DNA of 64,000 nt from Nitrospirota bacterium (GTDB taxonomy: Bacteria; Nitrospirota; Thermodesulfovibrionia; Thermodesulfovibrionales; Dissulfurispiraceae). The stretch spans positions 46,823 to 110,822 of the forward strand of contig CAWAQG010000005.1 of the NCBI GenBank assembly GCA_963784135.1, given 5' to 3'. The translations under genes and the position numbers were made by a program. Below the pieces are notes generated by a model. That model made no database searches and was not told the origin of the DNA. It saw only the letters and a program-made list of their open reading frames with translations. This document shows, piece by piece, positions 10,957 through 54,818 of the stretch. Positions within the stretch are counted from its first letter, which is position 1. Each line of letters starts with the position of its first letter.

Positions 10957-11030
10957 GGTGTTGGCAGTAGGTCAGTCGGAGACGTTCTGCCTGCCTCGAA
11001 ACCTTACAAGCATGTTATAATTGTGTACAA

Positions 11031-38180: not shown

Positions 38181-38207
38181 TGCTTAATTCATAATTCTTC
38201 ATACTGT

Positions 38208-38247
38208 TGTCATAATCCTGTAACGTTCGCTTTTGTAAACTTAACCT
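38208..38247 (+). promoter_or_regulatory. Pho-box-like array (11-bp phased): TGTCATA-atcc-TGTAACG-ttcg-CTTTTGT-aaac-TTAACCT
   Basis: The first two units match the E. coli Pho box CTGTCATAAAACTGTCAT at 13 of 18 positions. The array lies about 40 bp upstream of the 38288 gene. Confidence 0.55.
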
Positions 38248-38287
38248 CCGGGACAAAGCCATCCAATAAAAATTAAGGAGGAGCCAT

Positions 38288-38503
38288 ATGAAATGCAAGT
38301 ATTTGAATTTATTCAGGCTGTCCATGCTTGATTGGTCGATCACCTCATGCATGGCCAATGACAGGCCGTACACACCAAGCCTTTCCGAATTACATAATTA
38401 TTGTAAAGGCAAAGAATATACGAAGTGCCCTGTACTGCTGAAGATGGGTTGCGCAGAGAGTGATACCATCTGCACCGAAGTTGCTTTGGCCGAGCAGTGT
38501 TAA
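38288..38503 (+). CDS. Small Cys4-motif protein, family member A
   Basis: Strong SD (AAGGAGGAG). Cys at 3, 21, 39 and 47 gives the pattern C-K-Y-L ... C-x17-C-x7-C-P shared with four other ORFs in the window. Confidence 0.65.
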   Translation: MKCKYLNLFRLSMLDWSITSCMANDRPYTPSLSELHNYCKGKEYTKCPVLLKMGCAESDTICTEVALAEQC

Positions 38504-38545
38504 TAACAATCAGCGTTTTGTGAGCGCACCAGACGAAAAGGGGAG

Positions 38546-40396
38546 ATGTTAATTATGGCTATCCGGTTAAAATGGCAATTGAGTGGTAATGAGGAAAATT
38601 TTTACGTTGCTAACAATACCAACAAGGCATGCAGGCAGACTATTTTGGATTTGCTCGATCGTAATGCCCTCACTGTACATTTCCAGCCGATCTTTTCTTC
38701 AATTGAAGGAAAGGTTTTTGGATATGAAGCATTAACGAGGATCAAAGGAGAGCATCCTTTCGCTGATATCAGCGAACTGTTCCACAAAGCGGTCCTGACC
38801 AATACGATATCGACACTGGACATCCACTGCAGGGAAAATGCCATTAACCAGGCATCAGCTTTGGGATTAAACACAAAAGAATCTCATTTATTTATAAATG
38901 TATGCCCCGATACAATGATGGACACGGCCTACAGGGCAAGCATAACCGATGAACTGCTGGAGAGATCAGGCATACCGAAAGACCGTATAATTCTTGAAAT
39001 TACCGAAGAAAGCGCCATACATAACTATAATCTTTTCAAGGAATCCATTGAGTATTATCGGGGAAGAGGGTATAAGATAGCCATTGATGATTTTGGCGCG
39101 GGACACGGCGGCCTCAAGATGCTCTCAATTATCGAGCCCGATTTTGTCAAGATTGACCGGCATTTCATATCAAATATAGACAAGGCAATTGTAAAATTCA
39201 ACCTTGTTGATTCAATAGCTACTGCGTGCCATAGAATGGGCATAAAAGTAATTGCTGAGGGCATTGAACAGCAGGAAGAACTTGAGTCTATTCTCAATAT
39301 GGGCATTGAACTGCTTCAGGGATACTTGCTGCATAAGCCGTCTCCCATGTTCAACGGTGATCATGCCTGTATACCTAATTTACATAACAGGAAAAAAAAT
39401 AATATATCGGGCAGGGAGGAACAAAGTTTAATCGGCGAAGTAGCCAATTATGTGGAACCGATACACCCCGATTCATCTGTCATGACCGCATTCAACCGTT
39501 TCATCAAGGACCCGATACTCAGAGGGCTGCCTGCAGTGGATAATGAACAGGTGCTTGGGATGCTCCACAGGAACTGGTTTCTCGAGAACCAGATACTCGG
39601 CAGATGCGGCTACGGCTTTGCGCTGAATTCTTACAAGAACGTATCGAAGCTTATGGACCGCCAGTTCATGGTGGTTGAGTCGAACACGACGCTGGAAGAA
39701 GTGGCGCGCAGAATAAATGCCAGGAAGTCGGAATTCCTTTATGATGATATATGCATTACAAAAAACGGCAAATATTTCGGGACTGTGGCTATCAGCGCCC
39801 TTCTGGATGCGATGACAGAGAGGAGTCTTATTCTTGCAAAAGGGGCAAACCCGCTCTCCGGACTTCCCGGAAATGAATTTATACAGAGGGACATAGAGAA
39901 GAAATTGTCTCAAAACATGCATTTCGATGTTTGTTATGTGGATATCAACAATTTTAAACCGTATAATGACCATTACGGATTTGAAAGAGGTGATATTGTA
40001 ATTAAAAAACTTGCCCAGGTGCTGCAGGAAACTGTACAATCATTCGATACGGGAAGTTTTAATTTTGTCGGTCATATCGGTGGAGATGATTTTATTATCG
40101 TTACCCGGTCGCAGATTTCGATTCCGGTTTGTGAAAAGGTCATTTATCAATTTGAAGCAGAGTTGCCGGAACTGCATGGAGCTGAAGATTACAATAAGGG
40201 AGAATATCTTTCCAAGAACCGCAAAGGCGAGGAGGAAACATTCGGCCTTCTTTCCCTTTCAATAGGAATAGTCAGCACAGAGGTCTACAAGCTCGAGTCA
40301 TATGCCCAACTCGCCTCTATTGCAACAGAAGTCAAGAAGGCCGCAAAATTGCAGAGCGGTTCCTGGATAGAACGCGACAGGCGCAAGATGGGGTAA
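38546..40396 (+). CDS. EAL phosphodiesterase - CBS pair - degenerate GGDEF (GGDDF) signalling protein
   Basis: YEALTR, ILEITEE, DDFGAGHGG, KIDRHF and EGIEQQEE (intact EAL set); a central CBS-like region; a C-terminal cyclase fold with HIGGDDFIIV. Confidence 0.8.
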   Translation: MLIMAIRLKWQLSGNEENFYVANNTNKACRQTILDLLDRNALTVHFQPIFSSIEGKVFGYEALTRIKGEHPFADISELFHKAVLTNTISTLDIHCRENAINQASALGLNTKESHLFINVCPDTMMDTAYRASITDELLERSGIPKDRIILEITEESAIHNYNLFKESIEYYRGRGYKIAIDDFGAGHGGLKMLSIIEPDFVKIDRHFISNIDKAIVKFNLVDSIATACHRMGIKVIAEGIEQQEELESILNMGIELLQGYLLHKPSPMFNGDHACIPNLHNRKKNNISGREEQSLIGEVANYVEPIHPDSSVMTAFNRFIKDPILRGLPAVDNEQVLGMLHRNWFLENQILGRCGYGFALNSYKNVSKLMDRQFMVVESNTTLEEVARRINARKSEFLYDDICITKNGKYFGTVAISALLDAMTERSLILAKGANPLSGLPGNEFIQRDIEKKLSQNMHFDVCYVDINNFKPYNDHYGFERGDIVIKKLAQVLQETVQSFDTGSFNFVGHIGGDDFIIVTRSQISIPVCEKVIYQFEAELPELHGAEDYNKGEYLSKNRKGEEETFGLLSLSIGIVSTEVYKLESYAQLASIATEVKKAAKLQSGSWIERDRRKMG

Positions 40397-40417
40397 TAAA
40401 GGACTGAAACGGATTTC

Positions 40418-41659
40418 ATGAATAAAGGATTTCTTTGGGGTGTTGCTACATCCGCCTTTCAGCTTGAGGGCTCTCCGTATGCGGACTGGACCTCATGGGA
40501 CTCCATACTCAATGAAAAGCCAAATGTGACCAATCATTATGCGCTTTACAAAGAAGACTTGCTTCTGCTTAAAGACCTCGGCGTCAACTCCTATCGTTTT
40601 TCCATAGAGTGGAGCAGGATCCAGCCGAGAGAAAACACCTGGGACACCGCATCGCTGGCGCACTACCAGGAGATAGTCGATATCCTTATACAGAACAATA
40701 TCGAACCGATGGTCACACTAAACCATTTTACACACCCCCTGTGGTTTATCAAAAAATATCCCTGGCATGAGGACGCTTCGGTAGATAAGTTCTTAAAATT
40801 TATCGAGAGAGTGGTGGCAACTCTCAAGGGGGTCCGCTACTGGATAACATTCAATGAGCCCTATGTGCTCTTGTTGGGCGGTTATCTTGAAGGCTGCATG
40901 CCGCCCGGTATCCGCAATCCCTCGCTTGCCGTAAAAGCGCTGCAAAACATTCTTGTCTGCCACGGAAAGGCGTATGACCTTATTCATGAGCAGGCAAAAA
41001 AACACGGTATTACTCCGATGGTCAGCGTGGCGCATAATATGGCGGCCCTGGCGCCATGGAACCGGTTCAACCCGCTGGACAGGCTTCTCTCAAGAATAGC
41101 CAAGTACTTTTACAACCATTCTCTGCTCGATGCTTTTTTGACCGGCGTTCTGAAGATAAAGTTCCCCTTTAAAAACGAAATAAACATTCCGGTCCCCATT
41201 AAAAACAAGCTGGACTTCTTTGGGGTCAACTATTATACGCGTGTGCATATACGGTTTAACCCGTTTAAAAAGATGGGGATCGAACTGAGGAACAGGGACA
41301 TTGACGGTTATGGACTGACTGATATGGGATGGGAAATACATCCGCGCGGCCTTGAAAAGGTCCTGAGATATGCTTCAAAGCTTAATGTGCCTCTGATCAT
41401 CACCGAGAACGGTATCGCAACCCGTGACGGACAAAAAAAAATAAAATATATGAAAAGACACGTTGACGCGGTTGAAAAAAGCATCCAGGACGGTATCGAT
41501 GTCAGGGGCTATTTCTACTGGTCTCTGATCGATAACTACGAATGGCTGCAGGGACTCGATGCCAGGTTCGGCCTGTACCGGGTCGACTTCAACACAATGG
41601 AACGTAAACCGACTAATGCCGCGGCATATTACGCGTATATAATTAAAAGCCGGTCATAG
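40418..41659 (+). CDS. GH1 beta-glucosidase
   Basis: Acid/base ITFNEPY and nucleophile ITENG; YRFSIEWSRIQP block. Confidence 0.85.
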   Translation: MNKGFLWGVATSAFQLEGSPYADWTSWDSILNEKPNVTNHYALYKEDLLLLKDLGVNSYRFSIEWSRIQPRENTWDTASLAHYQEIVDILIQNNIEPMVTLNHFTHPLWFIKKYPWHEDASVDKFLKFIERVVATLKGVRYWITFNEPYVLLLGGYLEGCMPPGIRNPSLAVKALQNILVCHGKAYDLIHEQAKKHGITPMVSVAHNMAALAPWNRFNPLDRLLSRIAKYFYNHSLLDAFLTGVLKIKFPFKNEINIPVPIKNKLDFFGVNYYTRVHIRFNPFKKMGIELRNRDIDGYGLTDMGWEIHPRGLEKVLRYASKLNVPLIITENGIATRDGQKKIKYMKRHVDAVEKSIQDGIDVRGYFYWSLIDNYEWLQGLDARFGLYRVDFNTMERKPTNAAAYYAYIIKSRS

Positions 41660-41735
41660 GCCATAAGCTATGGCCTATAGGCAAAGAATTTTCTGTTTTT
41701 TTTGCCCATTGCCCATCGCCTATCGCCTATTGCCA
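41656..41735 (+). terminator. Compound hairpin/terminator made of GGC(C/T)AT-type units
   Basis: ATAGGCCATA-agc-TATGGCCTAT (10-bp perfect stem), then GGCAAA...TTTTTTTTGCC with a T run, then the C-rich repeats cattgcccatcgcctatcgcctattgcc. Confidence 0.65.
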
Positions 41736-41743
41736 TTGATTTT

Positions 41744-41794
41744 CGTAACATAATCTTAATCCGCCCTTAATAATGCTGTAACCAAAGTAATACT
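41744..41794 (+). promoter_or_regulatory. Pho-box-like array: CGTAACA-taat-CTTAATC-cgcc-CTTAATA-atgc-TGTAACC-aaag-TAATACT
   Basis: Five units at exact 11-bp phase, followed by TATTAT/TATATA. The ATG at 41807 follows 5-8 nt later with no SD. Confidence 0.55.
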
Positions 41795-41806
41795 ATTATA
41801 TACCTG

Positions 41807-42496
41807 ATGCTCTTGTGCGATTTTCATATCCACACCACCTACTCCGACGGTTCCGTGGAGTTGAGACGTACCATCGACCTTTTTGGACAAGCAGGATTTG
41901 ATGTTATTGCAATTACTGACCATGTGGTGAACGGCGACAACTCCATTGGAAAGTTTGCCCATCGCTTCAACCTGTCGGTAAGAGAAGACAATTTCGAGGA
42001 GTATATGGAACATATCAGGAAAGAGGCGGCAAGAGCATGGGACAAGTACGGGATGCTGGTGATCCCCGGAGTTGAAATCAGCAAAAATCATCTGTCTTCC
42101 GACAAATCCGCTCACTTGCTCCTTATTGATATAAAGGATTTTATTCCCGCATGCTGGAACTATGAGAAGATCTTTCTTGAGGCAAAGGAACAGGACGCAT
42201 TGATAGTGGCCTGCCACCCTCATTATATGTCGGACATGAGCCGCGACACGCTTTTCCTCTGGAACAACAGGGAGAAATATGCCAAATACATCGATGCATG
42301 GGAAGTAGCAAACAGAGACGACGTCTTCAATGTTATAAGCCTGAAGAAGTATCCCTATGTCGCTAATAGTGACTTCCATAAGGCACGCCACCTGTATTCG
42401 TGGAAAACGCTGCTTAATTGCGAGAAAGATACTGCAGCGGTAAAACAATGTATTAAACACAACAAAGGGGTCGCAATTACCCTTTTCAGAAACTGA
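41807..42496 (+). CDS. PHP-domain metal-dependent phosphoesterase
   Basis: N-terminal CDFHIHTTYSDG and later HP/H motifs (ACHPHY). Confidence 0.75.
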   Translation: MLLCDFHIHTTYSDGSVELRRTIDLFGQAGFDVIAITDHVVNGDNSIGKFAHRFNLSVREDNFEEYMEHIRKEAARAWDKYGMLVIPGVEISKNHLSSDKSAHLLLIDIKDFIPACWNYEKIFLEAKEQDALIVACHPHYMSDMSRDTLFLWNNREKYAKYIDAWEVANRDDVFNVISLKKYPYVANSDFHKARHLYSWKTLLNCEKDTAAVKQCIKHNKGVAITLFRN

Positions 42497-42517
42497 AGCA
42501 CTAATGGAGGGAGGGGT

Positions 42518-43744
42518 ATGGGAATATTCTGGATATTTGCTTCTCTTACTTTTTTAGGTCTTATTGCTTATGGCTTTCAAATATGGGCTGTACGCTCATA
42601 TCTTTCCACTCCCTGTAACTGCGGGGAAGGGCATGCCCTTCCCCGACTTTTTCCCCCAGTTTCGATTCTTAAACCGCTTAAGGGACTGGATGACAATCTG
42701 TACGACAACCTTCTCAGCTTCTGCAATCAGGACTATCCTGAATATGAGATTATATTCTCGCTCCAGAGTCATAATGATCCTGCCTATAAAGTTGCAAGGA
42801 AAATAAGAGAAAAATGCCCTGGCAGAAACATCACCATTATAGTTGAGGCATCCAATGCAGGTCTTAATCCGAAAGTCAATAATCTTCTGCCGGCATATAA
42901 AGCTTCAAGATATGAGTATATCCTTATCAGCGACAGCAATGTAATGGTTGATGAAAAGTATCTCAGGGAAATAACCTGTCAGATAGCGGACCCTGCTGCA
43001 GGCCATGAAATAGGATTAGTAAGCAATATTATAAAAGGTGTCGGCGGCCGTTCACTCGGGGCCGTATTTGAAAATCTGCACCTTAACTCCTTTGTTATGG
43101 GCAGCGTATGTTTTCTCGACAAGTTCCTGAAAATGCCCTGCGTGGTCGGGAAATCCATGCTGATGGGCAAAAAGGATTTGGAGGCAATCGGCGGGCTAAA
43201 AGCGGTAAAAAACATTCTTGCCGAGGATTATGTGCTTGGTGAAAGAATGCGCAAAAGCGGCAAAAAAGTAGTGCTGTCCAGCTATATGGTGCAGAATGTG
43301 AATGAATACTGGGGGATCAGGCGGTTCCTTAACCGTCATACGAGATGGGGCAAGCTCAGGTGGAAGCTCGGCGGCGGGAAATATATATTCGAATTGATCG
43401 GCAACCCCGTATTCATGTCGGCGCTTCCTATTGTATGCTGGCAATGCTCTAAATTGACCGTGACCTTTGCAATTCTCACCGCCCTTCTTAAGGTTGCCGG
43501 CGACTTCTATCTGGGCAGGAAGACGGGAACAGAACTGGACAATCCATTCCTTTACTTGCTTGCTCCGTTTAAAGACCTTCTTATCGGGCTCATATGGCCG
43601 GTGCCGCTTGTCAGCAATACTGTTGTTTGGAGAGGCAACCGGTATAGTATCGGCAAAAATTCTATACTCTCCCCCTGCCCTGAAACCGGTTTCTGGTCCC
43701 TGCGCTACAGGATTATAGATGCAATAAGGGAGAGATTTGCATAA
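42518..43744 (+). CDS. GT2/GT21 glycosyltransferase (ceramide glucosyltransferase / HpnI-like)
   Basis: N-terminal TM; SILKPLKGLD; ISDSN (D2); AEDY (D3); (Q/R)xxRW as RHTRWGKLRW; C-terminal TM helices. Confidence 0.7.
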   Translation: MGIFWIFASLTFLGLIAYGFQIWAVRSYLSTPCNCGEGHALPRLFPPVSILKPLKGLDDNLYDNLLSFCNQDYPEYEIIFSLQSHNDPAYKVARKIREKCPGRNITIIVEASNAGLNPKVNNLLPAYKASRYEYILISDSNVMVDEKYLREITCQIADPAAGHEIGLVSNIIKGVGGRSLGAVFENLHLNSFVMGSVCFLDKFLKMPCVVGKSMLMGKKDLEAIGGLKAVKNILAEDYVLGERMRKSGKKVVLSSYMVQNVNEYWGIRRFLNRHTRWGKLRWKLGGGKYIFELIGNPVFMSALPIVCWQCSKLTVTFAILTALLKVAGDFYLGRKTGTELDNPFLYLLAPFKDLLIGLIWPVPLVSNTVVWRGNRYSIGKNSILSPCPETGFWSLRYRIIDAIRERFA

Positions 43745-43759
43745 GGGAAGCGTGCAAAC

Positions 43760-43993
43760 ATGAATACATATATAACGCAGAGCGAAAGATGCCATACGGT
43801 TGTCGGCTGCGAGCATAGTTGTCCCTATTGTAATAACGAGAGCGGCATCTGTGCAGCCTCTTTGTCACAACTGGCAATCGATACCAGAAGAAGGTCCGGC
43901 TATTGCAATAATGAAAATTACGACAGTTGTCCGATGTTTTTGGCAAGGACCCTGCGAGGGGTCCCCAAAAAATCAAGGACTTTGGGGGAATAG
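43760..43993 (+). CDS. Small Cys4-motif protein, family member C
   Basis: The core pattern Cys are at residues 21, 31, 49 and 57 (C-P-Y-C...C-x17-C-x7-C-P); there are further Cys at 11, 17 and 24. It starts 13 nt after the GT21 stop. Confidence 0.6.
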   Translation: MNTYITQSERCHTVVGCEHSCPYCNNESGICAASLSQLAIDTRRRSGYCNNENYDSCPMFLARTLRGVPKKSRTLGE

Positions 43994-44008
43994 AAGGAGG
44001 TGGAAACT

Positions 44009-44176
44009 ATGTGTCCGGAGTTAAAAGAGGGTTCATGTGTGATAGCGGGTATTGAACCTGAAAAAGTAGCTTGTGCGGACACTCATTGCTGCAACAGCAA
44101 TGAGTGGGACAGGTGCAGAGTCTACATTTCACAATTTTTCCTGACCGGCGCCGGGGCATTCAGAGAGGTTGCATAA
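44009..44176 (+). CDS. Small Cys4-motif protein, family member D (55 aa; below the ORF-track cutoff)
   Basis: ATG at 44009 with AGGAGG 8 nt upstream. Translation: MCPELKEGSCVIAGIEPEKVACADTHCCNSNEWDRCRVYISQFFLTGAGAFREVA. Cys 2, 10, 28 and 36 give the same x17/x7 spacing. Confidence 0.55.
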   Translation: MCPELKEGSCVIAGIEPEKVACADTHCCNSNEWDRCRVYISQFFLTGAGAFREVA

Positions 44177-44181
44177 GACTT

Positions 44182-44221
44182 TGTTACAGTAATGTAACAT
44201 TCTTTTCATATTGCTGTAACA
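44182..44221 (+). promoter_or_regulatory. Pho-box-like array: TGTTACA-gtaa-TGTAACA-ttct-TTTCATA-ttgc-TGTAACA
   Basis: Four units at exact 11-bp phase, immediately upstream of the SD and start of member E. Confidence 0.55.
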
Positions 44222-44257
44222 TTGAGTTGTTATCATACAAAGGAGATGGAAAACAAA

Positions 44258-44479
44258 ATGTATATGGAAAGACTTACAATCTGTCCGCATCTTAAAGGAA
44301 GCCCGGTAGGCGCGGAGTGCCTTGTAGTGAACAAACTTGTCAAGGATATGCAGGATGTGGACATAAGAATATGCATGAGCAGGCGTCATGAAGCGTGTTC
44401 GGTCTATTTCTGCTCTCTGCAAATGGTCGAGGATGGCGGCGCCTATAAGCTTAAGTCGGTCCAGTGTTCCGGGATTTAA
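44258..44479 (+). CDS. Small Cys4-motif protein, family member E
   Basis: AAGGAG at 44240-44245 with in-frame ATGs at 44246, 44258 and 44264; I chose 44258. Cys 9 (C-P-H-L), 21, 39 and 47 relative to that start. Confidence 0.55.
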   Translation: MYMERLTICPHLKGSPVGAECLVVNKLVKDMQDVDIRICMSRRHEACSVYFCSLQMVEDGGAYKLKSVQCSGI

Positions 44480-44485
44480 CACGAA

Positions 44486-44514
44486 AGTAACAAAGCTGTC
44501 ATATTAGTGTAATA
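44486..44514 (+). promoter_or_regulatory. Pho-box-like array: AGTAACA-aagc-TGTCATA-ttag-TGTAATA
   Basis: Three phased units, then TAAAAT at 44524-44529. The GTG start at 44536 lies 7 nt downstream, giving a leaderless-type arrangement. Confidence 0.5.
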
Positions 44515-44535
44515 TTATTTGCTTAAAATGTACTT

Positions 44536-44847
44536 GTGACGGCAGATGCGGTTAAAGAAAAAATTGAAGTAAAGTGTCCGCATTGCAATTTGGATGCTGT
44601 ATATAAATATGGCAAAACGTGGCAGGGGAAGCAGCGGTTTCTATGTCTTATATGCGGCAGGCAATTTACCCAGAGTACAGGGAGATTTGAAGTCAAGGAC
44701 AGACCGGATTGTCCGGCGTGCGGCAAGATAATGCATTTATATAAAAGGGACGATAAAATATTGCGATTCAGGTGTTCGGGATATCCGGTTTGCAAGACAT
44801 TCTGGAAAACTTATATGGAGGGAGCTAATGAGCTACTACATTCATAA
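44536..44847 (+). CDS. Double zinc-ribbon protein (IS1 InsA-like CxxC...CxxC + topoisomerase-type C4 finger)
   Basis: CPHCN...CLICGRQF, then CPACG...FRCSGYPVCK. The GTG start is uncertain. Confidence 0.5.
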   Translation: MTADAVKEKIEVKCPHCNLDAVYKYGKTWQGKQRFLCLICGRQFTQSTGRFEVKDRPDCPACGKIMHLYKRDDKILRFRCSGYPVCKTFWKTYMEGANELLHS

Positions 44848-45199
44848 TGTGCCTGGAAGACTCAGAATTAAAAGCCCGGCAATAAAAAAGAACGAAAACG
44901 TGGCTAACGAACTCAAAATGGCATTGAGTACGATGAACGGGATTGCCACAGTCGACATTAACCTTACTACCGGCAGTCTGCTGGTGAACTATAATCCAAA
45001 GATGGCCAGCCATAAGGACATCATAAGCATACTGCAGCGGAAAGGTTATTTCGATACGACAAAGGCAGCTACCAATGAGCAGTATATTCATAGCGCCGCC
45101 ACTAAAGCCGGCCACCTGGTGGGCAAGGCGGTTTTGGGGGCTTTTGTCCAGGAAGCATTGGAAGGTTCGGCCCTGTCGTTATTAGCTGTATTACTGTAG
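44828..45199 (+). CDS. HMA2/CoBaHMA-like 'PGRxR' domain protein with C-terminal hydrophobic/amphipathic tail
   Basis: HNVPGRLRIKSP...NLTTGSLLVNYNP...ILQRKGY; contains no Cys; tail GKAVLGAFVQEALEGSALSLLAVLL; SD GGAGGGAG. Confidence 0.65.
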   Translation: MSYYIHNVPGRLRIKSPAIKKNENVANELKMALSTMNGIATVDINLTTGSLLVNYNPKMASHKDIISILQRKGYFDTTKAATNEQYIHSAATKAGHLVGKAVLGAFVQEALEGSALSLLAVLL

Positions 45200-45247
45200 T
45201 AAATCAGCCGCAGCAGTTCTCCCTGTTGTACCCTTAATGGACACCTT

Positions 45248-46818: not shown

Positions 46819-46861
46819 CCCTCCTGCGACACTGCAAATTTGTATACTTTACAGGAAAAAG

Positions 46862-46901
46862 GGTTAAAGCAGTTTTACAGGAATATTAATTTTAAGTTAC
46901 A
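46862..46901 (-). promoter_or_regulatory. Pho-box-like array (minus strand): TGTAACT-taaa-ATTAATA-ttcc-TGTAAAA-ctgc-TTTAACC
   Basis: Four units at exact 11-bp phase, 45-85 bp upstream of the olsB-like start. Confidence 0.5.
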
Positions 46902-46917
46902 GACAGGCAAGGGCAAA

Positions 46918-46970
46918 GGTAGAGGTGGAGGCAAAGGCAGAGTTTTCTTTATCTATACCTCTACCTCTAC
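46918..46970. repeat. Hexamer-repeat hairpin GGTAGAGGTGGAGG ... CCTCTACCTCTAC directly after the metK-like stop
   Basis: The arms are complementary (12/14 plus wobble) and are embedded in ggcaagggcaaagg-type repeats. It is a likely terminator separating metK-like from olsB-like. Confidence 0.55.
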
Positions 46971-46973
46971 TTG

Positions 46974-48161
46974 CTATTTCAGCAGTTGGGCTTTATCAGT
47001 GATTTCCCAGGGCAACCCTATATCCATCCTGCCGACGTGTCCGTAGACAGCGAGCTTCCGATAGAAACCGCCTTTAATGGTAGCAGGCAGGCGCCTCAGG
47101 CTAAATTGTTTTACAATTCCGGCAAGCCTGAAATCGAAATTTTTCTCTACCAGATCGGCAATAATTGTGTCCGGCAGTTTGCCGGTGCCGAACGTCTCTA
47201 CCTGGATGCTCACGGGACGGGAAAGACCTATGGAATAGCTGAGCTGGATTTCGCACTCCTCGGCAAGCCCGGCCGCAACCACATTCTTCGCCGCGTAACG
47301 CGCGGCATACGCGCCGACCCGGTCAATTCTCATGGGGTCCTTGCCGCTGAGTGCTGCACCGCTGTGGCGCGAATACTCCCCATAGGTATCAATGGCATTT
47401 TTTCTGCCGGTAAGCCCTGAATGGATTGACGGGCCGCCGGTTATAAACGGGCCGTCCGGATTAACGAATATTCTCGTATTTTTATCCGGCTTGACAACTT
47501 CATCATGGAAGACATTATCGATAATCGCTTCCCGTATATCGTCTCTCAGCTGTTGCAGCTCAGGGCCGCCGTGCTTATTCTGGCTTGCAATGACCGTTAT
47601 GCTGTGTATCCTGGACGGAATACGGTTTCTGAATTCAACTCCCACCTGTGTTTTCCCGTCCTGGGAAAGATAGGGCAGTATCTTCTGAAGCCTTGCCGAA
47701 GTGAGCCGTCTGGCGAGCTTATGCGCCAGCCATATGGGAAGCGGCATAAATGCGGGGGTCTGATTACAGGCGAAACCAAAAACCGTGACCTGGTTTTTCA
47801 CCGGGATGCTGTCGATTTCACTCTCGGTCAGCTCCCGTTCATCAAAATTGAAGTCCGCATCACGGGGCGATTCTTTGAGGCTTGTCAGGATACTGCATGT
47901 TTTGCCGTTAAACTCATGCTGTTCATAGCCGATCTGGGATATTACCTGGCGCGCTATATAGGGGAAGTCAACCCGTGCCTCAGAGGCAAACCTTGCAGCG
48001 ATGAAGAGAATCGATGTCGAAACAGCGCATTCCGCGATAACACGCGAGTAAGGGTCCTGCTGAAGAAAGTGGTCTACTATGGCATCGCTTATCTGGTCGC
48101 AGAGTTTGTCGGGATGTCCCTCTGTTACCGATTCGGACGTAAACATGAAATCCTTTTTCAT
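46974..48161 (-). CDS. Divergent methionine adenosyltransferase (MetK-like)
   Basis: TSESVTEGHPDKLCDQISDA, GLTGRK, SGKDP..IDR and AYAARY match MetK. The GAGDQG block reads PVKNQV and GGPxGD reads GGPSIH. The start overlaps the ATPase stop. Confidence 0.7.
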   Translation of the reverse strand: MKKDFMFTSESVTEGHPDKLCDQISDAIVDHFLQQDPYSRVIAECAVSTSILFIAARFASEARVDFPYIARQVISQIGYEQHEFNGKTCSILTSLKESPRDADFNFDERELTESEIDSIPVKNQVTVFGFACNQTPAFMPLPIWLAHKLARRLTSARLQKILPYLSQDGKTQVGVEFRNRIPSRIHSITVIASQNKHGGPELQQLRDDIREAIIDNVFHDEVVKPDKNTRIFVNPDGPFITGGPSIHSGLTGRKNAIDTYGEYSRHSGAALSGKDPMRIDRVGAYAARYAAKNVVAAGLAEECEIQLSYSIGLSRPVSIQVETFGTGKLPDTIIADLVEKNFDFRLAGIVKQFSLRRLPATIKGGFYRKLAVYGHVGRMDIGLPWEITDKAQLLK

Positions 48162-51100
48162 ATGGCTTCACCTCGCATAGTTTTCTTGGTGGCTTCATTG
48201 ACAACCAGAGGGAGCAGCGAACTTCCGCCGATTACCAGCGCATCTGTAAGATTTATCGTTGTTGTTCCGAGCAGACCTCTAAGTCCGGGCAATGCTATTG
48301 TCAATGCCTGCAGCGCAAATGAACCTCCGAGGGCCGCATTAAGGTACCTGTTGGAAGGGAGACGCTCTTTGTCAAAGATGCTGAGTTTTTCAGAACGGCA
48401 GCTGATGGCATGCAGAAGCTGACTCGTTGTGAGAGTCATAAAGGCCATTGTCCCTGCCTGTGCTCCGCGGCCGTATCGCGCAAGGCCGTACCCGTAAGCT
48501 CCGAGCGTGGCCGCGCTCATCATTGCCGATTCGAAACCTATCCTTTTAAAGTCGCTGCTCATAATAATAGGATGCTCAGGGTTGCGCGGCGGCTTGCTGA
48601 GGACATCGGGTTCAGGCTGTTCAAGTGCCAATGCCAGTCCCGGGAATATATCGGATATAAGGTTGATCCAAAGCAATTGCATGGCATTGACCGGCTGACC
48701 GAGGCCTCCGGCAATCGCCGTAAACATGACCATAATTTCACTGAGATTGGTCGACAGGAGAAAGTGTACTGATTTCCGGATATTGTTATAAATTGTGCGT
48801 CCGTGGCTTACAGCTATGATCATGGTCTCGAGATTGTCGTCCTCCAGCACAATATCGGCCACCTCGCGGGCGACATCCGTGCCGGTATGTCCCATTGCGA
48901 TGCCTATGTCGGCGGCCTTAAGCGCGGGGCCGTCATTAATGCCGTCGCCGGTCATAGCGACAACTTTCCCGGCGCTCTGAAGAGCTTGCACTATTTGAAG
49001 CTTATGGGCGGGACTTACGCGGGCAAAAACATGGACACGCTCGGCAAGCGCTTTCATGACATCCGGTTCTATATCCGTAAGGTGGGTCGAATCAAGGATC
49101 TCGAGCTGTTCTCCATTGCTCAAATCCAGCTCGTTTCCGATGGCATAGGCTGTAGGGGTCTGGTCTCCGGTTATCATAACTGTTTCTATGCCGGCCTGGT
49201 GGAAGACGCCGATCAGCTCCCTGACTCCCTTTCTGGTGGGGTCTGCCATCCCCACAAGGCCGAGCCAGACGAAACCGCTGCTGATATCGGACCCCGTGCC
49301 GTTGCCGTTTTCAATATGGTGATAAGCGAAGCCGAGGACGCGCAGTGCTTCACCGGCCATTCGCTCATTCTCTGTTTCCATTGCAAGCTTGTCATCATCC
49401 GAGATCAAAATCTTTTCGCCGTCCTTTATATACCAATCGCACATTGCCAGCACTTCCGTAGGACTGCCTTTCAGCGCGACGATCTTGCCCTCCGCGCCGT
49501 AGTCATGGTAGGTAGCCATATAATTGCGGTTTTCAGCGCGGTAGCCTATTTTGAGAAGCGGGTATTTATTTCTGAGCTGCATGATGTCAACCCCTGCGCA
49601 AATAGCCATATGCATAAGGGCATTCTCGGTGGGCGAGCCGCGCAGCACATATTTACCCTCTCCGTTATCATTGTAAGAGCTTCCCCCGGCCGGTTCACCC
49701 GCATGCTCTTTTACAATGATTTCAGATTCATTGCAGAGCACAGCTATATGGATGAGCCTGAGGAACTCGTCCATTGCATAAGGGTTAACCGTCTCCCTGC
49801 CTGCCATAAATTTTCCGTCCGCAACTTTTATCCTCTTCATCCCCGAATGCACAGCAACAACCGTCATCCTGTTCAGAGTTATGGTGCCGGTCTTGTCCAT
49901 GCATATGGTCTGCACCGAGCCGAGCGTCTCGACCGCATTGAGATGGCGTATGAGGACTTTATGCCTCCTCATATTCCTGATTCCCAGAGCGAGGGTCGTA
50001 GTTGCAACGGTCGGCAGCCCCTCGGGCACAGCGGCTACAGCAAGAGAGATCGAGCTTTTGAGCATCTGCAGGAAACCATATCCCCTGAGCAGACCTATGA
50101 CGAAAACAATACCACAGACTGCTCCGCTGATAAGAACAAGCTGTGTGCCCATTTTTTTAAGCTGGCGCTCCATAGGAGTATCGGGCGACTCCGCCGCTCC
50201 CACGAGTTCCTGTATCTTCCCTATCTCCGTGAATTTCCCGGTAGCTACAACTACAGCAAAGCCCTGTCCCCCTGTCACCAGGGTGCCCATATAGGCCATA
50301 TTGACCCTGTCGGCAAGCGGAATATTGTGGCCTGCTATGCTTGCCGTATTCTTTATGACCGGCATGCTCTCGCCGGTAAGGGCGGATTCATCAACGCTCA
50401 GGTGGGCTGTTTCAATCATTCTGCTGTCGGCAGCGATATAGCTGCCGGGCCTTAGTACCAGGATGTCCCCGATTACCACATCCTCGGCAGGGACCTCTTT
50501 ATAAATACTATCTCTTATGACAAGCGCGGAGGGCCTGACAAGGCTTTTGAGCGAATGAATGGTTTTCTCCGCCTGGCTCTCGGTTACATAGCCTATAACA
50601 GCATTGATGCCGACTACTCCTGCAATAACCACTGCATCAGCTATTCCCCCGGTCAGTACCGAAAGACCGGCAGCAACACCGAGCAAAGCATTAGGTATAG
50701 AGTTGAACTGTTCGAGCAGGATGCTCAGTCCGGAACGCGGGACCGATTCAGGCAGGAGATTGGGACCGAATTTCTTTAGCCTGGCTTGTGCGCTTTCACT
50801 TGAAAGTCCCGCAAGTGCCGCGGAATCCAGCCGCTCAAGGATTGCCGATAGTTCGGCGGTATGCCATGCCTCAACCGTCTGGTCCTCGGCGTGGCTGACA
50901 AGTCTTCTTACTTTCCCCCTGCTTTTTATCTCTTTAGCCGGAGCAGAAGACAGCCCGGACTCAGGCCCGGGGCCTGATGGAGGAGCAGTATCTTCCGTCT
51001 GCCTGAAGCTCTCGCCTTTATATTCGAGGACGATATTTTGAATAATCAGGGCAACAGCTTGGGAGGTATTGACGGAATTGAAATAGACGAGAATGCTTCC

Positions 51101-51247
51101 GGTCAATGTGTTTACAGAGACAAGATTAATCCCTTCTCTGCCTGAAAGACCCGATTCAAGATGCTCTCTCAGTGGTTCCGAACGATAAAGTCCGGGCACC
51201 TTGTATCGGGCCCTTCCGGGGATGGCCGCGTGTACTGTCTGTACCAC
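48158..51247 (-). CDS. P2-type (SERCA/PMCA-like) cation-translocating P-type ATPase with N-terminal HMA2/CoBaHMA-like domain
   Basis: DKTGTIT; TM4 VPEGLP; TGDGINDGPALKAADIGIAMG; TM5/6 NLSEIM and WINLISD; N-terminal AAIPGRARYKVP...NTLTGSILVYFNS. Confidence 0.85.
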   Translation of the reverse strand: MVQTVHAAIPGRARYKVPGLYRSEPLREHLESGLSGREGINLVSVNTLTGSILVYFNSVNTSQAVALIIQNIVLEYKGESFRQTEDTAPPSGPGPESGLSSAPAKEIKSRGKVRRLVSHAEDQTVEAWHTAELSAILERLDSAALAGLSSESAQARLKKFGPNLLPESVPRSGLSILLEQFNSIPNALLGVAAGLSVLTGGIADAVVIAGVVGINAVIGYVTESQAEKTIHSLKSLVRPSALVIRDSIYKEVPAEDVVIGDILVLRPGSYIAADSRMIETAHLSVDESALTGESMPVIKNTASIAGHNIPLADRVNMAYMGTLVTGGQGFAVVVATGKFTEIGKIQELVGAAESPDTPMERQLKKMGTQLVLISGAVCGIVFVIGLLRGYGFLQMLKSSISLAVAAVPEGLPTVATTTLALGIRNMRRHKVLIRHLNAVETLGSVQTICMDKTGTITLNRMTVVAVHSGMKRIKVADGKFMAGRETVNPYAMDEFLRLIHIAVLCNESEIIVKEHAGEPAGGSSYNDNGEGKYVLRGSPTENALMHMAICAGVDIMQLRNKYPLLKIGYRAENRNYMATYHDYGAEGKIVALKGSPTEVLAMCDWYIKDGEKILISDDDKLAMETENERMAGEALRVLGFAYHHIENGNGTGSDISSGFVWLGLVGMADPTRKGVRELIGVFHQAGIETVMITGDQTPTAYAIGNELDLSNGEQLEILDSTHLTDIEPDVMKALAERVHVFARVSPAHKLQIVQALQSAGKVVAMTGDGINDGPALKAADIGIAMGHTGTDVAREVADIVLEDDNLETMIIAVSHGRTIYNNIRKSVHFLLSTNLSEIMVMFTAIAGGLGQPVNAMQLLWINLISDIFPGLALALEQPEPDVLSKPPRNPEHPIIMSSDFKRIGFESAMMSAATLGAYGYGLARYGRGAQAGTMAFMTLTTSQLLHAISCRSEKLSIFDKERLPSNRYLNAALGGSFALQALTIALPGLRGLLGTTTINLTDALVIGGSSLLPLVVNEATKKTMRGEAI

Positions 51248-51253
51248 GTACCG

Positions 51254-51919
51254 CTATGCTTCCCTTTTTGTTCTGTGCCTGGTCGAAATCTCAGGTGCAG
51301 AATGAGTCGCCTCCGGCGCTGACGAACGCGGCAGTGCGGAGCCGGCAACTTCCTTCACTCCGGCAACGACGCCGACGAGCATGTCCTTCACAGCGCGCAC
51401 AGCAGTATTGCCGATAGCTCCCGCTGCCTCTATTGCGCCTCCGACAGCAACTGTGGCAGCTTCTTCCACATTACCGCCGACTTCTTTTGTGGCTTCAATT
51501 ACACCGTCCACAGCCCTTCTCGCTACGAGTGCCACATCAGCGCCGACTTCGGCAGCACCCTTGACCGCACCTTTGACAGTCTGCCCCGTAACACTCAGTA
51601 CATCGCCTCCTACATCGCTGACCCCCATTATAATGCCTTTTGCAACACTTTTAGTGCTCAGAATCAGGCCGGTACCAACCTCTTCCGTGGCCTGAATTGC
51701 ACCCTTTACTACATCTTTTGTTACGACCACACCCTCGCTGGTTACAGATGCCGTCGCCTTCAGCGCATTAGAAACAATGTTTCTCACTAAACTCACTATT
51801 TCAGCCTCGATTTCGTTGATTCCTTTCAGACTGCTTACAATGCCCTCTTTCACCTTTGTTCCAGCTGCTCCAATGTTGGCAGCCCTGCCCGGATTGGTCT
51901 TAGCCTCGCCCTTAGTCAT
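51254..51919 (-). CDS. Ala/Val/Gly-rich protein built of about eight tandem 22-residue repeats
   Basis: Repeats align as VVKGAIQATEEVGTGLILSTKS / VAKGIIMGVSDVGGDVLSVTGQ / TVKGAVKGAAEVGADVALVARR / AVDGVIEATKEVGGNVEEAATV / AVGGAIEAAGAIGNTAVRAVKD. Confidence 0.6.
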   Translation of the reverse strand: MTKGEAKTNPGRAANIGAAGTKVKEGIVSSLKGINEIEAEIVSLVRNIVSNALKATASVTSEGVVVTKDVVKGAIQATEEVGTGLILSTKSVAKGIIMGVSDVGGDVLSVTGQTVKGAVKGAAEVGADVALVARRAVDGVIEATKEVGGNVEEAATVAVGGAIEAAGAIGNTAVRAVKDMLVGVVAGVKEVAGSALPRSSAPEATHSAPEISTRHRTKREA

Positions 51920-51997
51920 AATAGCAACCCCCTTTTAGATTGTTATTAATTGTGTTTTTTTGATGTGCCATGCGACGGTTTGACTACACGGCTGCCG

Positions 51998-52486
51998 CTA
52001 CTTGTTCTCCTCACCAGTGGCATGAGGCACTGATTTCAGAAATATATTCAATGAATACCAAAAAGCTGTATACCATGCGGGGGCCGCAAAGTTCCCCCTG
52101 CTGATTTCGTATATACCGAACCCCAGCAGCGTCAGGAAAGCAACTCCGGGGACATCCAGTTCGTTGCCGGTAAGTCTTTTTACTCCCTTATCAAAATCTT
52201 TGAAGGTTTTTACTACATTTCGGGACAGAGCAGGCGTCCCGTTATCTAATTTAATGAGCCTGAAGAGTGAGTTCTCCTCGGCAAAAACAGAAATTGCCTT
52301 TAAATCAGCAGCATGAATGAACACAACACTGCCGGTAAGGGCATTTGCTTCTACTTCCCTTACTCCCTCAAGATGAGTAAAATGGTCTTTCAGATTAGAG
52401 AAATAAGCGGCATTTCCTTTTCTGGAGGGCACTTTTACCCTCGATCTTCCAGGTGTAGAGTGGCATACAATCGCTTCCGGTATCAT
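51998..52486 (-). CDS. HMA2/CoBaHMA-like 'PGRxR' domain protein with C-terminal TM hairpin
   Basis: HSTPGRSRVKVP...NALTGSVVFIH; C-terminal VAFLTLLGFGIYEI...AWYTAFWYSLNIFL. Confidence 0.65.
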   Translation of the reverse strand: MIPEAIVCHSTPGRSRVKVPSRKGNAAYFSNLKDHFTHLEGVREVEANALTGSVVFIHAADLKAISVFAEENSLFRLIKLDNGTPALSRNVVKTFKDFDKGVKRLTGNELDVPGVAFLTLLGFGIYEISRGNFAAPAWYTAFWYSLNIFLKSVPHATGEENK

Positions 52487-52773
52487 TAAGCGCCTGTTTT
52501 ATCCTCGGGGCTGGTCCCGGCTGCCTGATTATGTGACTCCGCCATTTCAGCCTTTACTTCTGCAACGATATCTTCCATCATCTCACCTGCTTCTGCAACA
52601 GCCTCTTTGCTTTTTTCATATAGAATAAGGCTGCCTTTGATAGCGGCTTTTGCAATCGGCTTTATCACTCCCGCCAGTGCCGGAATCACCTGGGGGGCAA
52701 ATAGAGCCGTACCAACACCGATAGCGAGCCCTGTAACTATATTACCCTTTAATCCATTATCAAAAAGTGCCAT
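52486..52773 (-). CDS. DUF5132-like small membrane/amphipathic protein
   Basis: 95 aa; a Gly/Ala-rich hydrophobic N-terminal half (GLAIGVGTALFAPQVIPALAGV), then an acidic helix. The family assignment is from memory of this sequence pattern. Confidence 0.5.
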   Translation of the reverse strand: MALFDNGLKGNIVTGLAIGVGTALFAPQVIPALAGVIKPIAKAAIKGSLILYEKSKEAVAEAGEMMEDIVAEVKAEMAESHNQAAGTSPEDKTGA

Positions 52774-52890
52774 ACTGTCCTCCCGCTTGTTAGTACGTGT
52801 CTAATCAAAGTGTATAATAGAACGACTCAAATGTAAATGTAAAAGCTTTATACATAAAGTTTTCATTACATACCTACATAGCATAAAGAC

Positions 52891-52968
52891 AGGGGCAAGG
52901 GGCAAGGAGCATGGGGTTAGCATCTTTATACCTGTAACCTAAACCTCTTGACCCTTGCCTCTTGCCTT
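52891..52968. repeat. Hexamer-repeat hairpin AGGGGCAAGGGGCAAGGAG ... CTCTTGACCCTTGCCTCTT in the divergent intergenic region
   Basis: G-rich and C-rich arms built of GGGCAAG units, about 16/19 complementary with one bulge. Confidence 0.55.
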
Positions 52969-52974
52969 TTGAAA

Positions 52975-53014
52975 TGTCACAAAGTTGTAACAAACCGTTC
53001 ATCATATTGTAAGA
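52975..53014 (+). promoter_or_regulatory. Pho-box-like array: TGTCACA-aagt-TGTAACA-aacc-GTTCATC-atat-TGTAAGA
   Basis: Four units at exact 11-bp phase, about 45 bp upstream of the 53060 start. Confidence 0.55.
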
Positions 53015-53059
53015 ATAGTTATGATTTAATTAATAAAACCTGAAAGGCGGGTGGATTGA

Positions 53060-53314
53060 ATGATCAACTACAGGGTGGTTCACCATGTTCCGGGACGCAT
53101 CAGAGTGCAGGTGCCGATAATCAAAAAGCTTTCTGTTGCAACATTAGAAAAATTAGCCGGGATACCATTACCGGAGGGGATTAAAGATATCCGCGCCAAT
53201 CCGATTACCGGAAGTCTTGTCATAACATATGATCCTGATCATGTTGACATAGAGAAATACCTGGAAAAAATGACGACAGACAGTGAGATAACCTCAACAA
53301 TCGGCATGAGGTGA
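53060..53314 (+). CDS. Stand-alone HMA2/CoBaHMA-like 'PGRxR' domain protein
   Basis: 84 aa: HHVPGRIRVQVP...NPITGSLVITYDP; contains no Cys. Confidence 0.65.
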   Translation: MINYRVVHHVPGRIRVQVPIIKKLSVATLEKLAGIPLPEGIKDIRANPITGSLVITYDPDHVDIEKYLEKMTTDSEITSTIGMR

Positions 53315-53321
53315 TACTGTA

Positions 53322-53510
53322 ATGCCAACCGGTACGGCAAGAAGGGAAAGTCCGCTTCCAAAAGTTGAGAGCAGGCGCCTGAAATGCCCTTACCTTACTA
53401 AATACATCATATTTACCTGTCAGGCAGGAGCTGTCCCTTACGTTCCAAGTTTGTTCCAGCTTGAAGAGTACTGTAAAAGTAAGCAGCATAAGAAATGCCC
53501 TTTGCTGTAA
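53322..53510 (+). CDS. Small Cys4-motif protein, family member B
   Basis: Starts 8 nt after the HMA2-like stop. Cys 22 (C-P-Y-L), 33, 51 and 59. PYVPSLFQLEEYCKSKQHKKCP closely parallels member A (PYTPSLSELHNYCKGKEYTKCP). Confidence 0.65.
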   Translation: MPTGTARRESPLPKVESRRLKCPYLTKYIIFTCQAGAVPYVPSLFQLEEYCKSKQHKKCPLL

Positions 53511-53560
53511 TTAATTAAGATGTTAATTTAATTGACATTGACCGAAAAATCTCCCCTAAC

Positions 53561-53606
53561 CCCTCTTTGCTGAAGAGGGAAAATGCCTCCCTTTTACAAA
53601 GGGAGG
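53561..53606 (+). terminator. Two tandem hairpins CCCTCTT-tgctg-AAGAGGG and CCTCCCTT-ttac-AAGGGAGG
   Basis: Perfect 7- and 8-bp stems downstream of the HMA2/Cys4-B pair and upstream of the pstS promoter. Confidence 0.55.
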
Positions 53607-53648
53607 TCAGGAGGGATTTCATAAGAGGGAGGTGATATGTAATATAGA

Positions 53649-53677
53649 TTTAACATTGGCGTAACATTTATGTAACA
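53649..53677 (+). promoter_or_regulatory. Pho box array upstream of pstS: TTTAACA-ttgg-CGTAACA-ttta-TGTAACA
   Basis: Three 7-bp direct repeats at 11-bp phase, 50-80 bp upstream of pstS, the canonical Pho regulon gene. Confidence 0.65.
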
Positions 53678-53728
53678 GTTATTCGTTTATCCTTAAATTA
53701 GTAAGAAATTGTTCCAACAGGAGGAAGT

Positions 53729-54739: not shown

Positions 54740-54818
54740 AAGTTAGATTGAATTAAGAGGGTCAGGTATGTATTATATATCCTGACCCTTTTATTTACCT
54801 TTTAAAGGAGCTTGCAGC

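Follow-up and report, generated by a model that had tools for sequence, protein, structure and literature searches.

Seven arrays of 11-bp-phased TGTAACA-type repeats, very probably Pho boxes, in a gene cluster around pstSCAB-phoU of a Nitrospirota bacterium

The 64-kb stretch of DNA analysed here (the window: contig CAWAQG010000005.1 of a Nitrospirota bacterium, positions 46,823 to 110,822) contains the phosphate-transport operon pstS-pstC-pstA-pstB-phoU and, directly upstream of this operon and of six neighbouring transcription units, seven arrays of short direct repeats (A1 to A7), which we read directly from the sequence. We regard it as very probable that these arrays are Pho boxes, i.e. 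operators of a PhoB/PhoP-type winged-helix response regulator. As a switch, this operator is of an ordinary, known kind; the more interesting part is the content of the putative regulon, which includes candidate lipid-remodelling enzymes, CoBaHMA-domain proteins and a family of small four-cysteine (Cys4) proteins.

The original prediction, made from the nucleotide letters, placed phased heptamers in seven intergenic regions, each upstream of a particular transcription unit. All seven were recovered by direct reading, and each is oriented toward its unit, A5 on the minus strand. The spacing, predicted to be exactly 11 bp, is so in all arrays, save for a single 10-bp step in A1. The repeats had been described as TGTAACA/TGTCATA; the former is indeed the dominant unit, together with TTTAACA, but TGTCATA is a minority variant confined to A1 and A4 (other variants are CTTAATA and TTTCATA). 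Approximately four units, and not two or three, are found at each site. The units, the -10 hexamers and the full spans (including the -10) are as follows:

A1, plus strand, upstream of the Cys4A/EAL-CBS-GGDEF/GH1 genes: 38187 ATTCATA, 38197 CTTCATA, 38208 TGTCATA, 38219 TGTAACG; -10-like TAAACT at 38236-38241, 10 nt past the last unit; span 38187..38241
A2, plus strand, upstream of the PHP gene: 41744 CGTAACA, 41755 CTTAATC, 41766 CTTAATA, 41777 TGTAACC; -10 TATTAT at 41794-41799, 10 nt past the last unit; span 41744..41799
A3, plus strand, upstream of Cys4E: 44182 TGTTACA, 44193 TGTAACA, 44204 TTTCATA, 44215 TGTAACA; -10 TATCAT at 44231-44236, 9 nt past the last unit; span 44182..44236
A4, plus strand, upstream of the zinc-ribbon/HMA2_a genes: 44475 TTTAACA, 44486 AGTAACA, 44497 TGTCATA, 44508 TGTAATA; -10 TAAAAT at 44524-44529, 9 nt past the last unit; span 44475..44529
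A5, minus strand, upstream of the olsB-like/olsA-like genes: TGTAACT, ATTAATA, TGTAAAA, TTTAACC, running from 46901 to 46862; -10-like TAAAGT from 46851 to 46846, 10 nt past the last unit; span 46846..46901
A6, plus strand, upstream of HMA2_b/Cys4B: 52975 TGTCACA, 52986 TGTAACA, 52997 GTTCATC, 53008 TGTAAGA; -10 candidates TGtAAGAAT at 53008-53016 or TATGAT at 53020-53025; span 52975..53025
A7, plus strand, upstream of pstS: 53638 TGTAATA, 53649 TTTAACA, 53660 CGTAACA, 53671 TGTAACA; -10 TATCCT at 53688-53693, 10 nt past the last unit; span 53638..53693

Only the last two units of A1 are strong, and the first unit of A4 overlaps the stop codon of Cys4E.

A search of both strands of the window for the core [GT]T[ACT]A[CT], recurring over three steps of 11 bp each, finds six clusters, all of them claimed arrays; in dinucleotide-preserving shuffles the mean is 0.3 and the highest count 3. 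At four 11-bp steps, the numbers are four observed clusters versus 0.0 in the shuffles. A weight matrix was also derived from the four pstS (A7) units alone, a choice made to lower circularity. Scanned over the window, it recovers the other six arrays, and it does so only at period 11: 21 positions score at least 12 bits at this period, as compared with 2-5 at other periods from 7 to 15. The ranking is headed by A7 (29.5 bits), A3 (27.3), A4 (21.7), A5 (18.8, minus strand) and A2, followed by A1 (13.2) and A6 (10.3). The best match outside the arrays scores 14.0 bits, at 11030 on the minus strand, and therefore A1 and A6 are marginal on sequence alone. A6 is rescued by its conservation, A1 only in part. 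The site at 11030 was considered as an extra array and dismissed as a chance match; it has no downstream gene on that strand.

Comparison with relatives was based on a scan with PstS, which gave 68 loci, the closest being metagenome-assembled genomes (MAGs) of Nitrospirota/Thermodesulfovibrionia with 88-91% identity, and on a scan with the GT21 glycosyltransferase, which gave 80 metagenome loci (loci are designated L001 and so on). The four-unit pstS footprint GTAAY-N6-TTAAC-N6-GTAAC-N6-GTAAC, together with a TATCCT/TATGCT -10, is kept in approximately 25 Nitrospirota loci and holds to ~65% PstS identity while the flanks diverge. The PstS-scan loci contain 88 arrays in 1.10 Mb, one of them within an open reading frame (ORF), and the GT21-scan loci 84 arrays in 0.65 Mb, three of them within ORFs; taken together, only 4 of 172 arrays (~1.75 Mb) are located inside ORFs. 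Arrays precede the genes that come first in their operons, namely PHP (20/21), HMA2_b (14/15), Cys4E (12/14), zinc-ribbon (14/17) and PstS (30/58, a set that includes other phyla), and are missing ahead of the internal genes GT21 (0/37), HMA2_a (0/16), Cys4B (0/14), pstC (0/51) and pstB (0/49), the sole exception being pstA (1/50). Per 100 kb, the Nitrospirota-type loci contain 12.9-22.1 arrays and those of Aquificota 5.3, as compared with 0.7 for Proteobacteria and 0.0 for the distant GT21 loci, of which 285 kb were scanned. The operator is found ahead of the PHP-GT21, Cys4E, zinc-ribbon-HMA2_a, HMA2_b-Cys4B and olsB orthologues even where the gene order has changed. All four units of A5 are kept in five loci with unrelated upstream flanks (L003, L004, L005, L012 and L059), and L010 has an independent array ahead of olsB. 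Altogether, six of the seven arrays are conserved, and A1 is the weakest.

The relatives also carry arrays ahead of further genes: those for PsiE, for Porin_O_P (a phosphate-selective porin) and other porins, and for a receiver-histidine kinase protein beside pstS. The last of these is a fused receiver/HisKA/HATPase protein of 364-390 aa, encoded with its own array just upstream of pstS in L085, L086 and L094. In Aquificota (L029-L036 and L062), CTTAACA-N4-TTTAATA-N4-CTTAACA lies ahead of a phosphate-selective porin gene ~1.4 kb upstream of pstS, so that this phylum, too, seems to have a Pho operator of a similar TTAAC type.

We aligned 167 distinct arrays from the window and its relatives, anchored on the last unit. 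Their consensus is TTTAACAaaaa TTTAACAttgc TGTAATAttcc TGTAACA, in which the fourth (distal) unit is informative, though the search did not demand it. A TAnnnT hexamer begins 9-10 nt past the last heptamer in 107 of the 167 arrays, as it does for A1-A5 and A7 in the window. A scan with the sigma-70 consensus found no consensus -35 at the array promoters, while for the DUF5132 operon, which has no array, it called a conventional TTTACA-18-TATTAT (52843-52814); that the scan misses the array promoters is to be expected if they have no -35. The geometry of the arrays is thus that of a putative Pho box standing in place of the -35. Only 6-9 nt separate the end of the -10 from the start codon at several of the array promoters, namely those of PHP (ATG 41807), the zinc-ribbon gene (GTG 44536) and possibly Cys4E (ATG 44246). 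For PHP this distance is 7 nt, so that the mRNA is probably leaderless, and the distance from array to start is 21-24 nt in all orthologues; the mRNAs of the zinc-ribbon gene and possibly Cys4E are probably leaderless as well. The pstS array is immediately preceded by a perfect extended Shine-Dalgarno-like GGGAGGTGAT (53628-53645), which is not part of the predicted transcript. It occurs at the equivalent position in most Nitrospirota pstS loci, and in many cases ATG-TAA comes next, to which the first heptamer of the array contributes. GGGAGG occurs three times in 53596-53633, with one copy inside a CCTCCC/GGGAGG hairpin.

In eight loci (L007, L008, L015, L020, L023, L024, L075 and L090) the cluster includes the gene of a PhoB-like regulator, which shares 42-46% identity with an E. 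coli PhoB sequence; in L008 this gene lies at 7186-7932. In L008 and L075 the regulator gene is followed by that of a PnpS/PhoR-like kinase, and in relatives the phoB-phoR-like genes are located between array-bearing genes and pstS. In NCBIfam the regulator matches PhoB best and the kinase PnpS/PhoR, the latter with a score of 372, just below the equivalog cut-off of 400. In L008 the order is [array] HMA2_b-Cys4B-phoB-phoR-[array] pstS; in L075 it is phoBR-GH1-[array] PHP-GT21-olsF-like-phoH-like-[array] psiE, continuing after psiE with ...-[array] Cys4E-[array] zinc-ribbon-HMA2_a. Thus, despite rearrangements, it is the same set of genes that accompanies phoBR and pst. The arrays are directly seen to accompany pst, psiE, porin and phoBR genes, and this association, the pstS footprint and the recurrence of the same operator at orthologous genes support the original assignment of the repeats as Pho operators.

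Several observations weigh against this assignment. The loci were gathered around pstS and GT21 and are not a neutral genome sample, and the pattern used to scan them was derived from the window's own arrays, a circularity that the shuffles, the control loci of other phyla and the matrix built from pstS only offset in part. For A6 the position of the -10 is ambiguous, and A1 has only one orthologous locus (L070), which keeps the two proximal units and the TAAACT -10. Neither phoB nor phoR was found within the window by tblastn with an E. coli PhoB query. The relatives' regulator scores 266.9, just below the PhoB equivalog cut-off of 296.2, and reaches 254.8 against YycF/WalR, whose consensus TGTWAH-N5-TGTWAH the unit TGTAAC equals.

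The score against YycF and the match to the WalR consensus, and also the WalR sites listed at staphylococcal pstS (PMC5405149), would fit if the arrays bound a different OmpR/PhoB-family regulator that responds to a signal other than phosphate (envelope stress, Ca2+/Mg2+ or another metal), with pst as one target among others. The cluster also encodes many CoBaHMA proteins and has a Ca-type ATPase gene beside it, and some relatives have the fused receiver-histidine kinase with its own array beside pstS. We nevertheless consider such a regulator improbable, because of the regulon content: in every relative the strongest and best-conserved array is that of pstSCAB-phoU, the other targets (psiE, the phosphate porin, olsB, olsF and the GT21 lipid genes) are textbook phosphate-starvation genes, the adjoining two-component pair matches best as PhoB and PnpS/PhoR, and the Ca-ATPase operon has no array in this clade but a different conserved motif, probably an operator. 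A WalR/YycF box proper was rejected as well: the unit matches, but the downstream genes are those for Pst, PsiE, porin and lipid remodelling, not for cell-wall hydrolases. Still less credible, to the point of being negligible, is the notion that the repeats are no operators at all and reflect chance, AT-rich elements of a general promoter or curvature type, or what is left of a small repetitive element. The array regions are AT-rich intergenic DNA, and long imperfect hairpins of short tandem repeats adjoin three of the arrays; yet these hairpins are not conserved along with the arrays, whereas the arrays themselves exceed the shuffled expectation (6 versus 0.3 clusters), are restricted to the 11-bp period, point strictly toward genes at a constant distance to the -10, persist at orthologous promoters with diverged flanks and are absent or rare in the other-phylum loci (distant GT21 and proteobacterial). 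A chance or structural origin of the arrays is effectively refuted. The hairpins, imperfect and long, consist of tandem 6-7-nt GGCAAR/TYGCCYA-like units, lie at 41656-41733, 46905-46970 and 52876-52977, immediately 5' of A2, A5 and A6, and are kept in the closest relatives only; they may be terminators, insulators or an element resembling repetitive extragenic palindromes.

The genes of the block, for which searches of Pfam and NCBIfam upheld the earlier gene calls, are listed below with the databases consulted:

38288..41659, plus strand: transcription unit 1, behind A1, with Cys4A (38288-38503), an EAL-CBS-GGDEF protein (38546-40396) and a GH1 beta-glucosidase-like protein (40418-41659) (Pfam, NCBIfam)
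41807..44176, plus strand: transcription unit 2, behind A2, with a PHP-domain phosphoesterase (41807-42496) and a GT21 glycosyltransferase (42518-43744) (Pfam, NCBIfam), then the small proteins Cys4C (43760-43993) and Cys4D (44009-44176)
44258-44479, plus strand: Cys4E, behind A3, with an alternative start at 44246
44536-44847 and 44828-45199, plus strand: zinc-ribbon protein and the CoBaHMA protein HMA2_a, behind A4 (Pfam)
46818 to 46021 and 46033 to 45248, minus strand: olsB-like and olsA-like genes, behind A5 (NCBIfam)
53060-53314 and 53322-53510, plus strand: HMA2_b (CoBaHMA) and Cys4B, behind A6
53729..58031, plus strand: pstS-pstC-pstA-pstB-phoU operon, behind A7 (Pfam)
46974..52773, minus strand: array-less unit with DUF5132 (52773 to 52486), a CoBaHMA protein of 162 aa (52486 to 51998), an Ala/Val/Gly-rich 221-aa protein (51919 to 51254), a Ca-type P2 ATPase (51247 to 48158) and metK (48161 to 46974) (Pfam, NCBIfam)

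The intergenic gaps in transcription unit 2 are 15-21 nt. PstS scores above the NCBIfam equivalog cut-off (405 versus 339 bits), and the top NCBIfam match of the GT21 protein is HpnI, below the cut-off of that model. The P-type ATPase is PMR1/SERCA-like and has an N-terminal CoBaHMA (HMA_2) domain. A GH77 gene lies to the left of Cys4A on the plus strand. Neither the 221-aa protein nor a 165-aa protein has a family match in Pfam or NCBIfam; the former (51254-51919) consists of 45% Ala/Val/Gly, with repeat-like KG/EVG motifs.

From these data we infer the following mechanism, in which the identity of the binding protein, the activation, the phosphate signal and the roles of the enzymes are predicted. 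Each array would offer about four head-to-tail 11-bp units, composed of a 7-bp core (TGTAACA) and a 4-bp spacer, all on one face of the helix and pointing toward the gene, with the last core ending 9-10 bp ahead of the TAnnnT -10 hexamer, at the usual place of the -35. Under phosphate limitation, PhoR would phosphorylate PhoB, and the four units would be filled by two PhoB dimers. PhoB would then bring in RNA polymerase in the manner of a class II activator that substitutes for the -35. The proteins co-induced in this way would include the high-affinity phosphate-uptake system (pstSCAB-phoU), enzymes that exchange phospholipids for phosphorus-free lipids (olsBA for ornithine lipid, the GT21 enzyme for glycolipid and, as a possible source of diacylglycerol, the PHP phosphoesterase), the cyclic di-GMP phosphodiesterase/cyclase protein, and a set of small proteins: the five four-cysteine paralogues, the zinc-ribbon protein and the two stand-alone CoBaHMA proteins.

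The E. coli Pho box consists of CTGTCAT-N4-CTGTCAT, located 10 bp upstream of the -10, with pstS as the archetypal target. The arrays described here resemble it in the 7-bp core with a 4-bp spacer, the direct repeats, the replaced -35, the distance of ~10 bp to the -10 and the TGTCATA units of A1 and A4. However, TGTAACA and not TGTCAT predominates, and an array comprises four units where the E. coli box has two; the CTGTCAT consensus is not matched by the consensus of the 167 arrays, and the proteobacterial control loci have the TGTCATA type only (L053). The PhoP box of B. subtilis has four TT(A/T/C)ACA repeats with 11-bp periodicity, and here the likeness extends to the four units, the period and the TTAACA-type core; in addition, the relatives' kinase matches best the Firmicute-type PnpS. 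The differences lie in core position 2, where the promoter-proximal units prefer G to T, in the Gram-negative-type Nitrospirota host and in the content of the regulon. In Desulfovibrio vulgaris, the box of PhoB (DVU1083), determined by DNA affinity purification on chip, is built of repeated (C/T)GTnAC, and the targets include HD/EAL genes as well as pst and phoU (PMC3333781). The core of this box is shared with the TGTAAC, TGTCAC and TGTTAC units of the window, and the HD/EAL phosphodiesterase targets parallel the EAL-GGDEF gene behind A1. On the other hand, this box was described with two repeats in another phylum, while about four units are found here, and targets of the lipid-remodelling, CoBaHMA and Cys4 kinds, present in our cluster, were not reported for D. 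vulgaris PhoB (PMC3333781).

The putative lipid genes have their own parallels. Pho boxes have been predicted ahead of olsB and the GT21 gene pgt in Agrobacterium (PMC3972451) and ahead of the plcP-glycosyltransferase (plcP-agt) operons of marine bacteria (PMC4796936), and PhoB controls the formation of ornithine lipids in several species, including systems with olsF (PMC12971839). As in the plcP-agt operons, the putative Pho box is followed first by the gene of a phosphoesterase and then by that of a glycosyltransferase, although the phosphoesterase here is of the PHP-domain and not of the PlcP type, and the combination of a GT21 enzyme with olsB or olsF in one regulon is that of the Agrobacterium and olsF systems. 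In the library searched, no description of a Pho box in Nitrospirae or Thermodesulfovibrio was found.

The original prediction held that the entire block, which it called an island, is induced together. The six conserved arrays are consistent with co-induction of the units behind them, but A1 is weak, and the metK and ATPase operon has no array. A functional operator might accordingly be limited to a core subset (pstS, PHP-GT21, Cys4E, zinc-ribbon-HMA2_a, HMA2_b-Cys4B and olsBA), with A1 a chance or decayed site, and to this we assign a minor though real share of probability. It would account for the score of A1 (13.2 bits) being below the 14.0 bits of an unrelated site in the window, for its 10-bp step, for the distal units not being kept in L070 and for the array-less operon inside the block. 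Yet what L070 does keep is the proximal pair with TAAACT at the canonical 10-nt distance, and two units correspond to one dimer, which is sufficient for many Pho boxes. Moreover, all four units are present in the array of an EAL-domain gene of L101, a relative that is more distant, GH1 remains in the phoB/PHP cluster of relatives, adjoining PHP or phoB, and EAL/HD genes are PhoB targets in D. vulgaris (PMC3333781).

For the unit of DUF5132, CoBaHMA, 221-aa, ATPase and metK genes, no Pho array was found in the window or in close relatives, in agreement with the earlier remark that none was convincing there; an internal array ahead of the 221-aa gene exists only in L008, L010, L014 and L042. Instead, a different motif, TAGGYAWGTAATGAAAG, is conserved just 5' of the DUF5132 promoter in nearly all relatives (52858-52874 in the window, minus strand). 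It occurs 70-150 nt upstream of DUF5132 orthologues in L001-L014, L021, L042, L090 and L091, down to ~58% protein identity. Probably, it serves the DUF5132/CoBaHMA/Ca-ATPase operon as the operator of another regulator. The description as an island did not hold, as the block is neither compositionally distinct nor mobile. Horizontal acquisition was rejected: the G+C fraction is 0.42-0.54 inside the block and 0.43-0.56 outside, and the gene set is kept, in rearranged form, across Thermodesulfovibrionia. Owing to this even composition and conserved synteny, the block is better called a regulon cluster.

The four HMA_2 (PF19991) domains of the window score 51.4, 53.8, 37.6 and 38.4 bits against the Pfam cut-off of 30; all four have the motif H-x2-3-PGR-x-R-x-K, and none has CxxC. 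They are members of the CoBaHMA family. Pfam HMA_2 corresponds to the CoBaHMA domain of calcyanin, which is hypothesised to bind anionic lipids, and in Microcystis genes for CoBaHMA and DUF5132 proteins flank ccyA and a Ca2+/H+ exchanger gene (PMC8890360; bioRxiv 10.1101/2024.07.07.602159; 10.64898/2025.12.07.689555). The association of CoBaHMA, DUF5132 and Ca-type ATPase genes in the window resembles the neighbourhood of ccyA in cyanobacteria that form intracellular amorphous CaCO3, where CoBaHMA, DUF5132 and a Ca2+ transporter are likewise encoded together (PMC8890360; bioRxiv 10.1101/2024.07.07.602159). The transporter there is a CAX exchanger, whereas here it is a P-type ATPase, and no GlyZip domain, as in calcyanin, was identified. 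The stand-alone CoBaHMA genes analysed here bear arrays and lie beside pstS or phoB, a link that the papers on ccyA do not describe (PMC8890360; bioRxiv 10.1101/2024.07.07.602159).

The Cys4 proteins form one family with an invariant CP...C-x17-C-x7-CP pattern (in full, CP-x8-15-C-x17-C-x7-CP). A profile search found at least 312 members, all annotated as hypothetical, every named source being Nitrospirota; no Pfam domain was found in this family, and the five Cys4 proteins of the window have no family match in Pfam or NCBIfam. An AlphaFold2 model of Cys4B from a 73-sequence alignment was too poor to use (mean predicted local distance difference test, pLDDT, 52; predicted template modelling score, pTM, 0.28). 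In relatives, the HMA2_b-Cys4B pair always immediately precedes pstS or phoB; the latter is the case in L008, where the pair has the orientation of phoB-phoR and is separated from phoB by 17 nt. The new element is the apparent Pho-box control of CoBaHMA and Cys4 genes, as judged from their operators, combined with this fixed place. Because of the position beside pstS or phoB, one may speculate that the stand-alone CoBaHMA, Cys4 and zinc-ribbon proteins belong to the core of the Pho regulon and act in direct concert with PhoBR/Pst, a proposal that we put forward with considerable reserve. They could possibly be accessory sensors or regulators of the anionic-lipid status of the membrane during phospholipid replacement, or possibly modulators of the CoBaHMA-tagged Ca-ATPase. 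If this is true, phosphate starvation would be the first physiological condition under which the function of CoBaHMA can be studied.

The putative Pho operator, four TGTAACA-type units followed by a -10, is hereby defined for Thermodesulfovibrionia, a largely uncultured sulfate-reducing and magnetotactic lineage, whose Pho regulons could thus be read directly from MAGs. It leads to the prediction that under scarce phosphate these bacteria replace phospholipids by ornithine lipids and glycolipids, with a PHP-type phosphoesterase in the role of PlcP. It would also place two protein families under a defined, testable signal: CoBaHMA, which is of interest to the field of intracellular carbonates, and the more than 300 four-cysteine proteins without a Pfam domain.

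Two further kinds of array-bearing genes were noted in relatives. In L002, L003, L004 and L059, serA (D-3-phosphoglycerate dehydrogenase), on the minus strand ~9 kb downstream of pstS, is preceded by the four-unit array TTTAACC-AATTAAT-GTTAACA-TGTAATA and is an unexpected candidate Pho target. An unannotated protein of ~95 aa (IIIKIESGVV...DYDMIEGGETFE) is also array-bearing in several relatives (L086, L088, L091 and L094). Elsewhere in the window, an identical 33-nt string occurs at 12548 and 18714 (minus strand), in each case within one of two ~470-aa ORFs that resemble each other and are probably copies of an insertion sequence, and a DDE transposase gene is located at 59737-61044, just past phoU.

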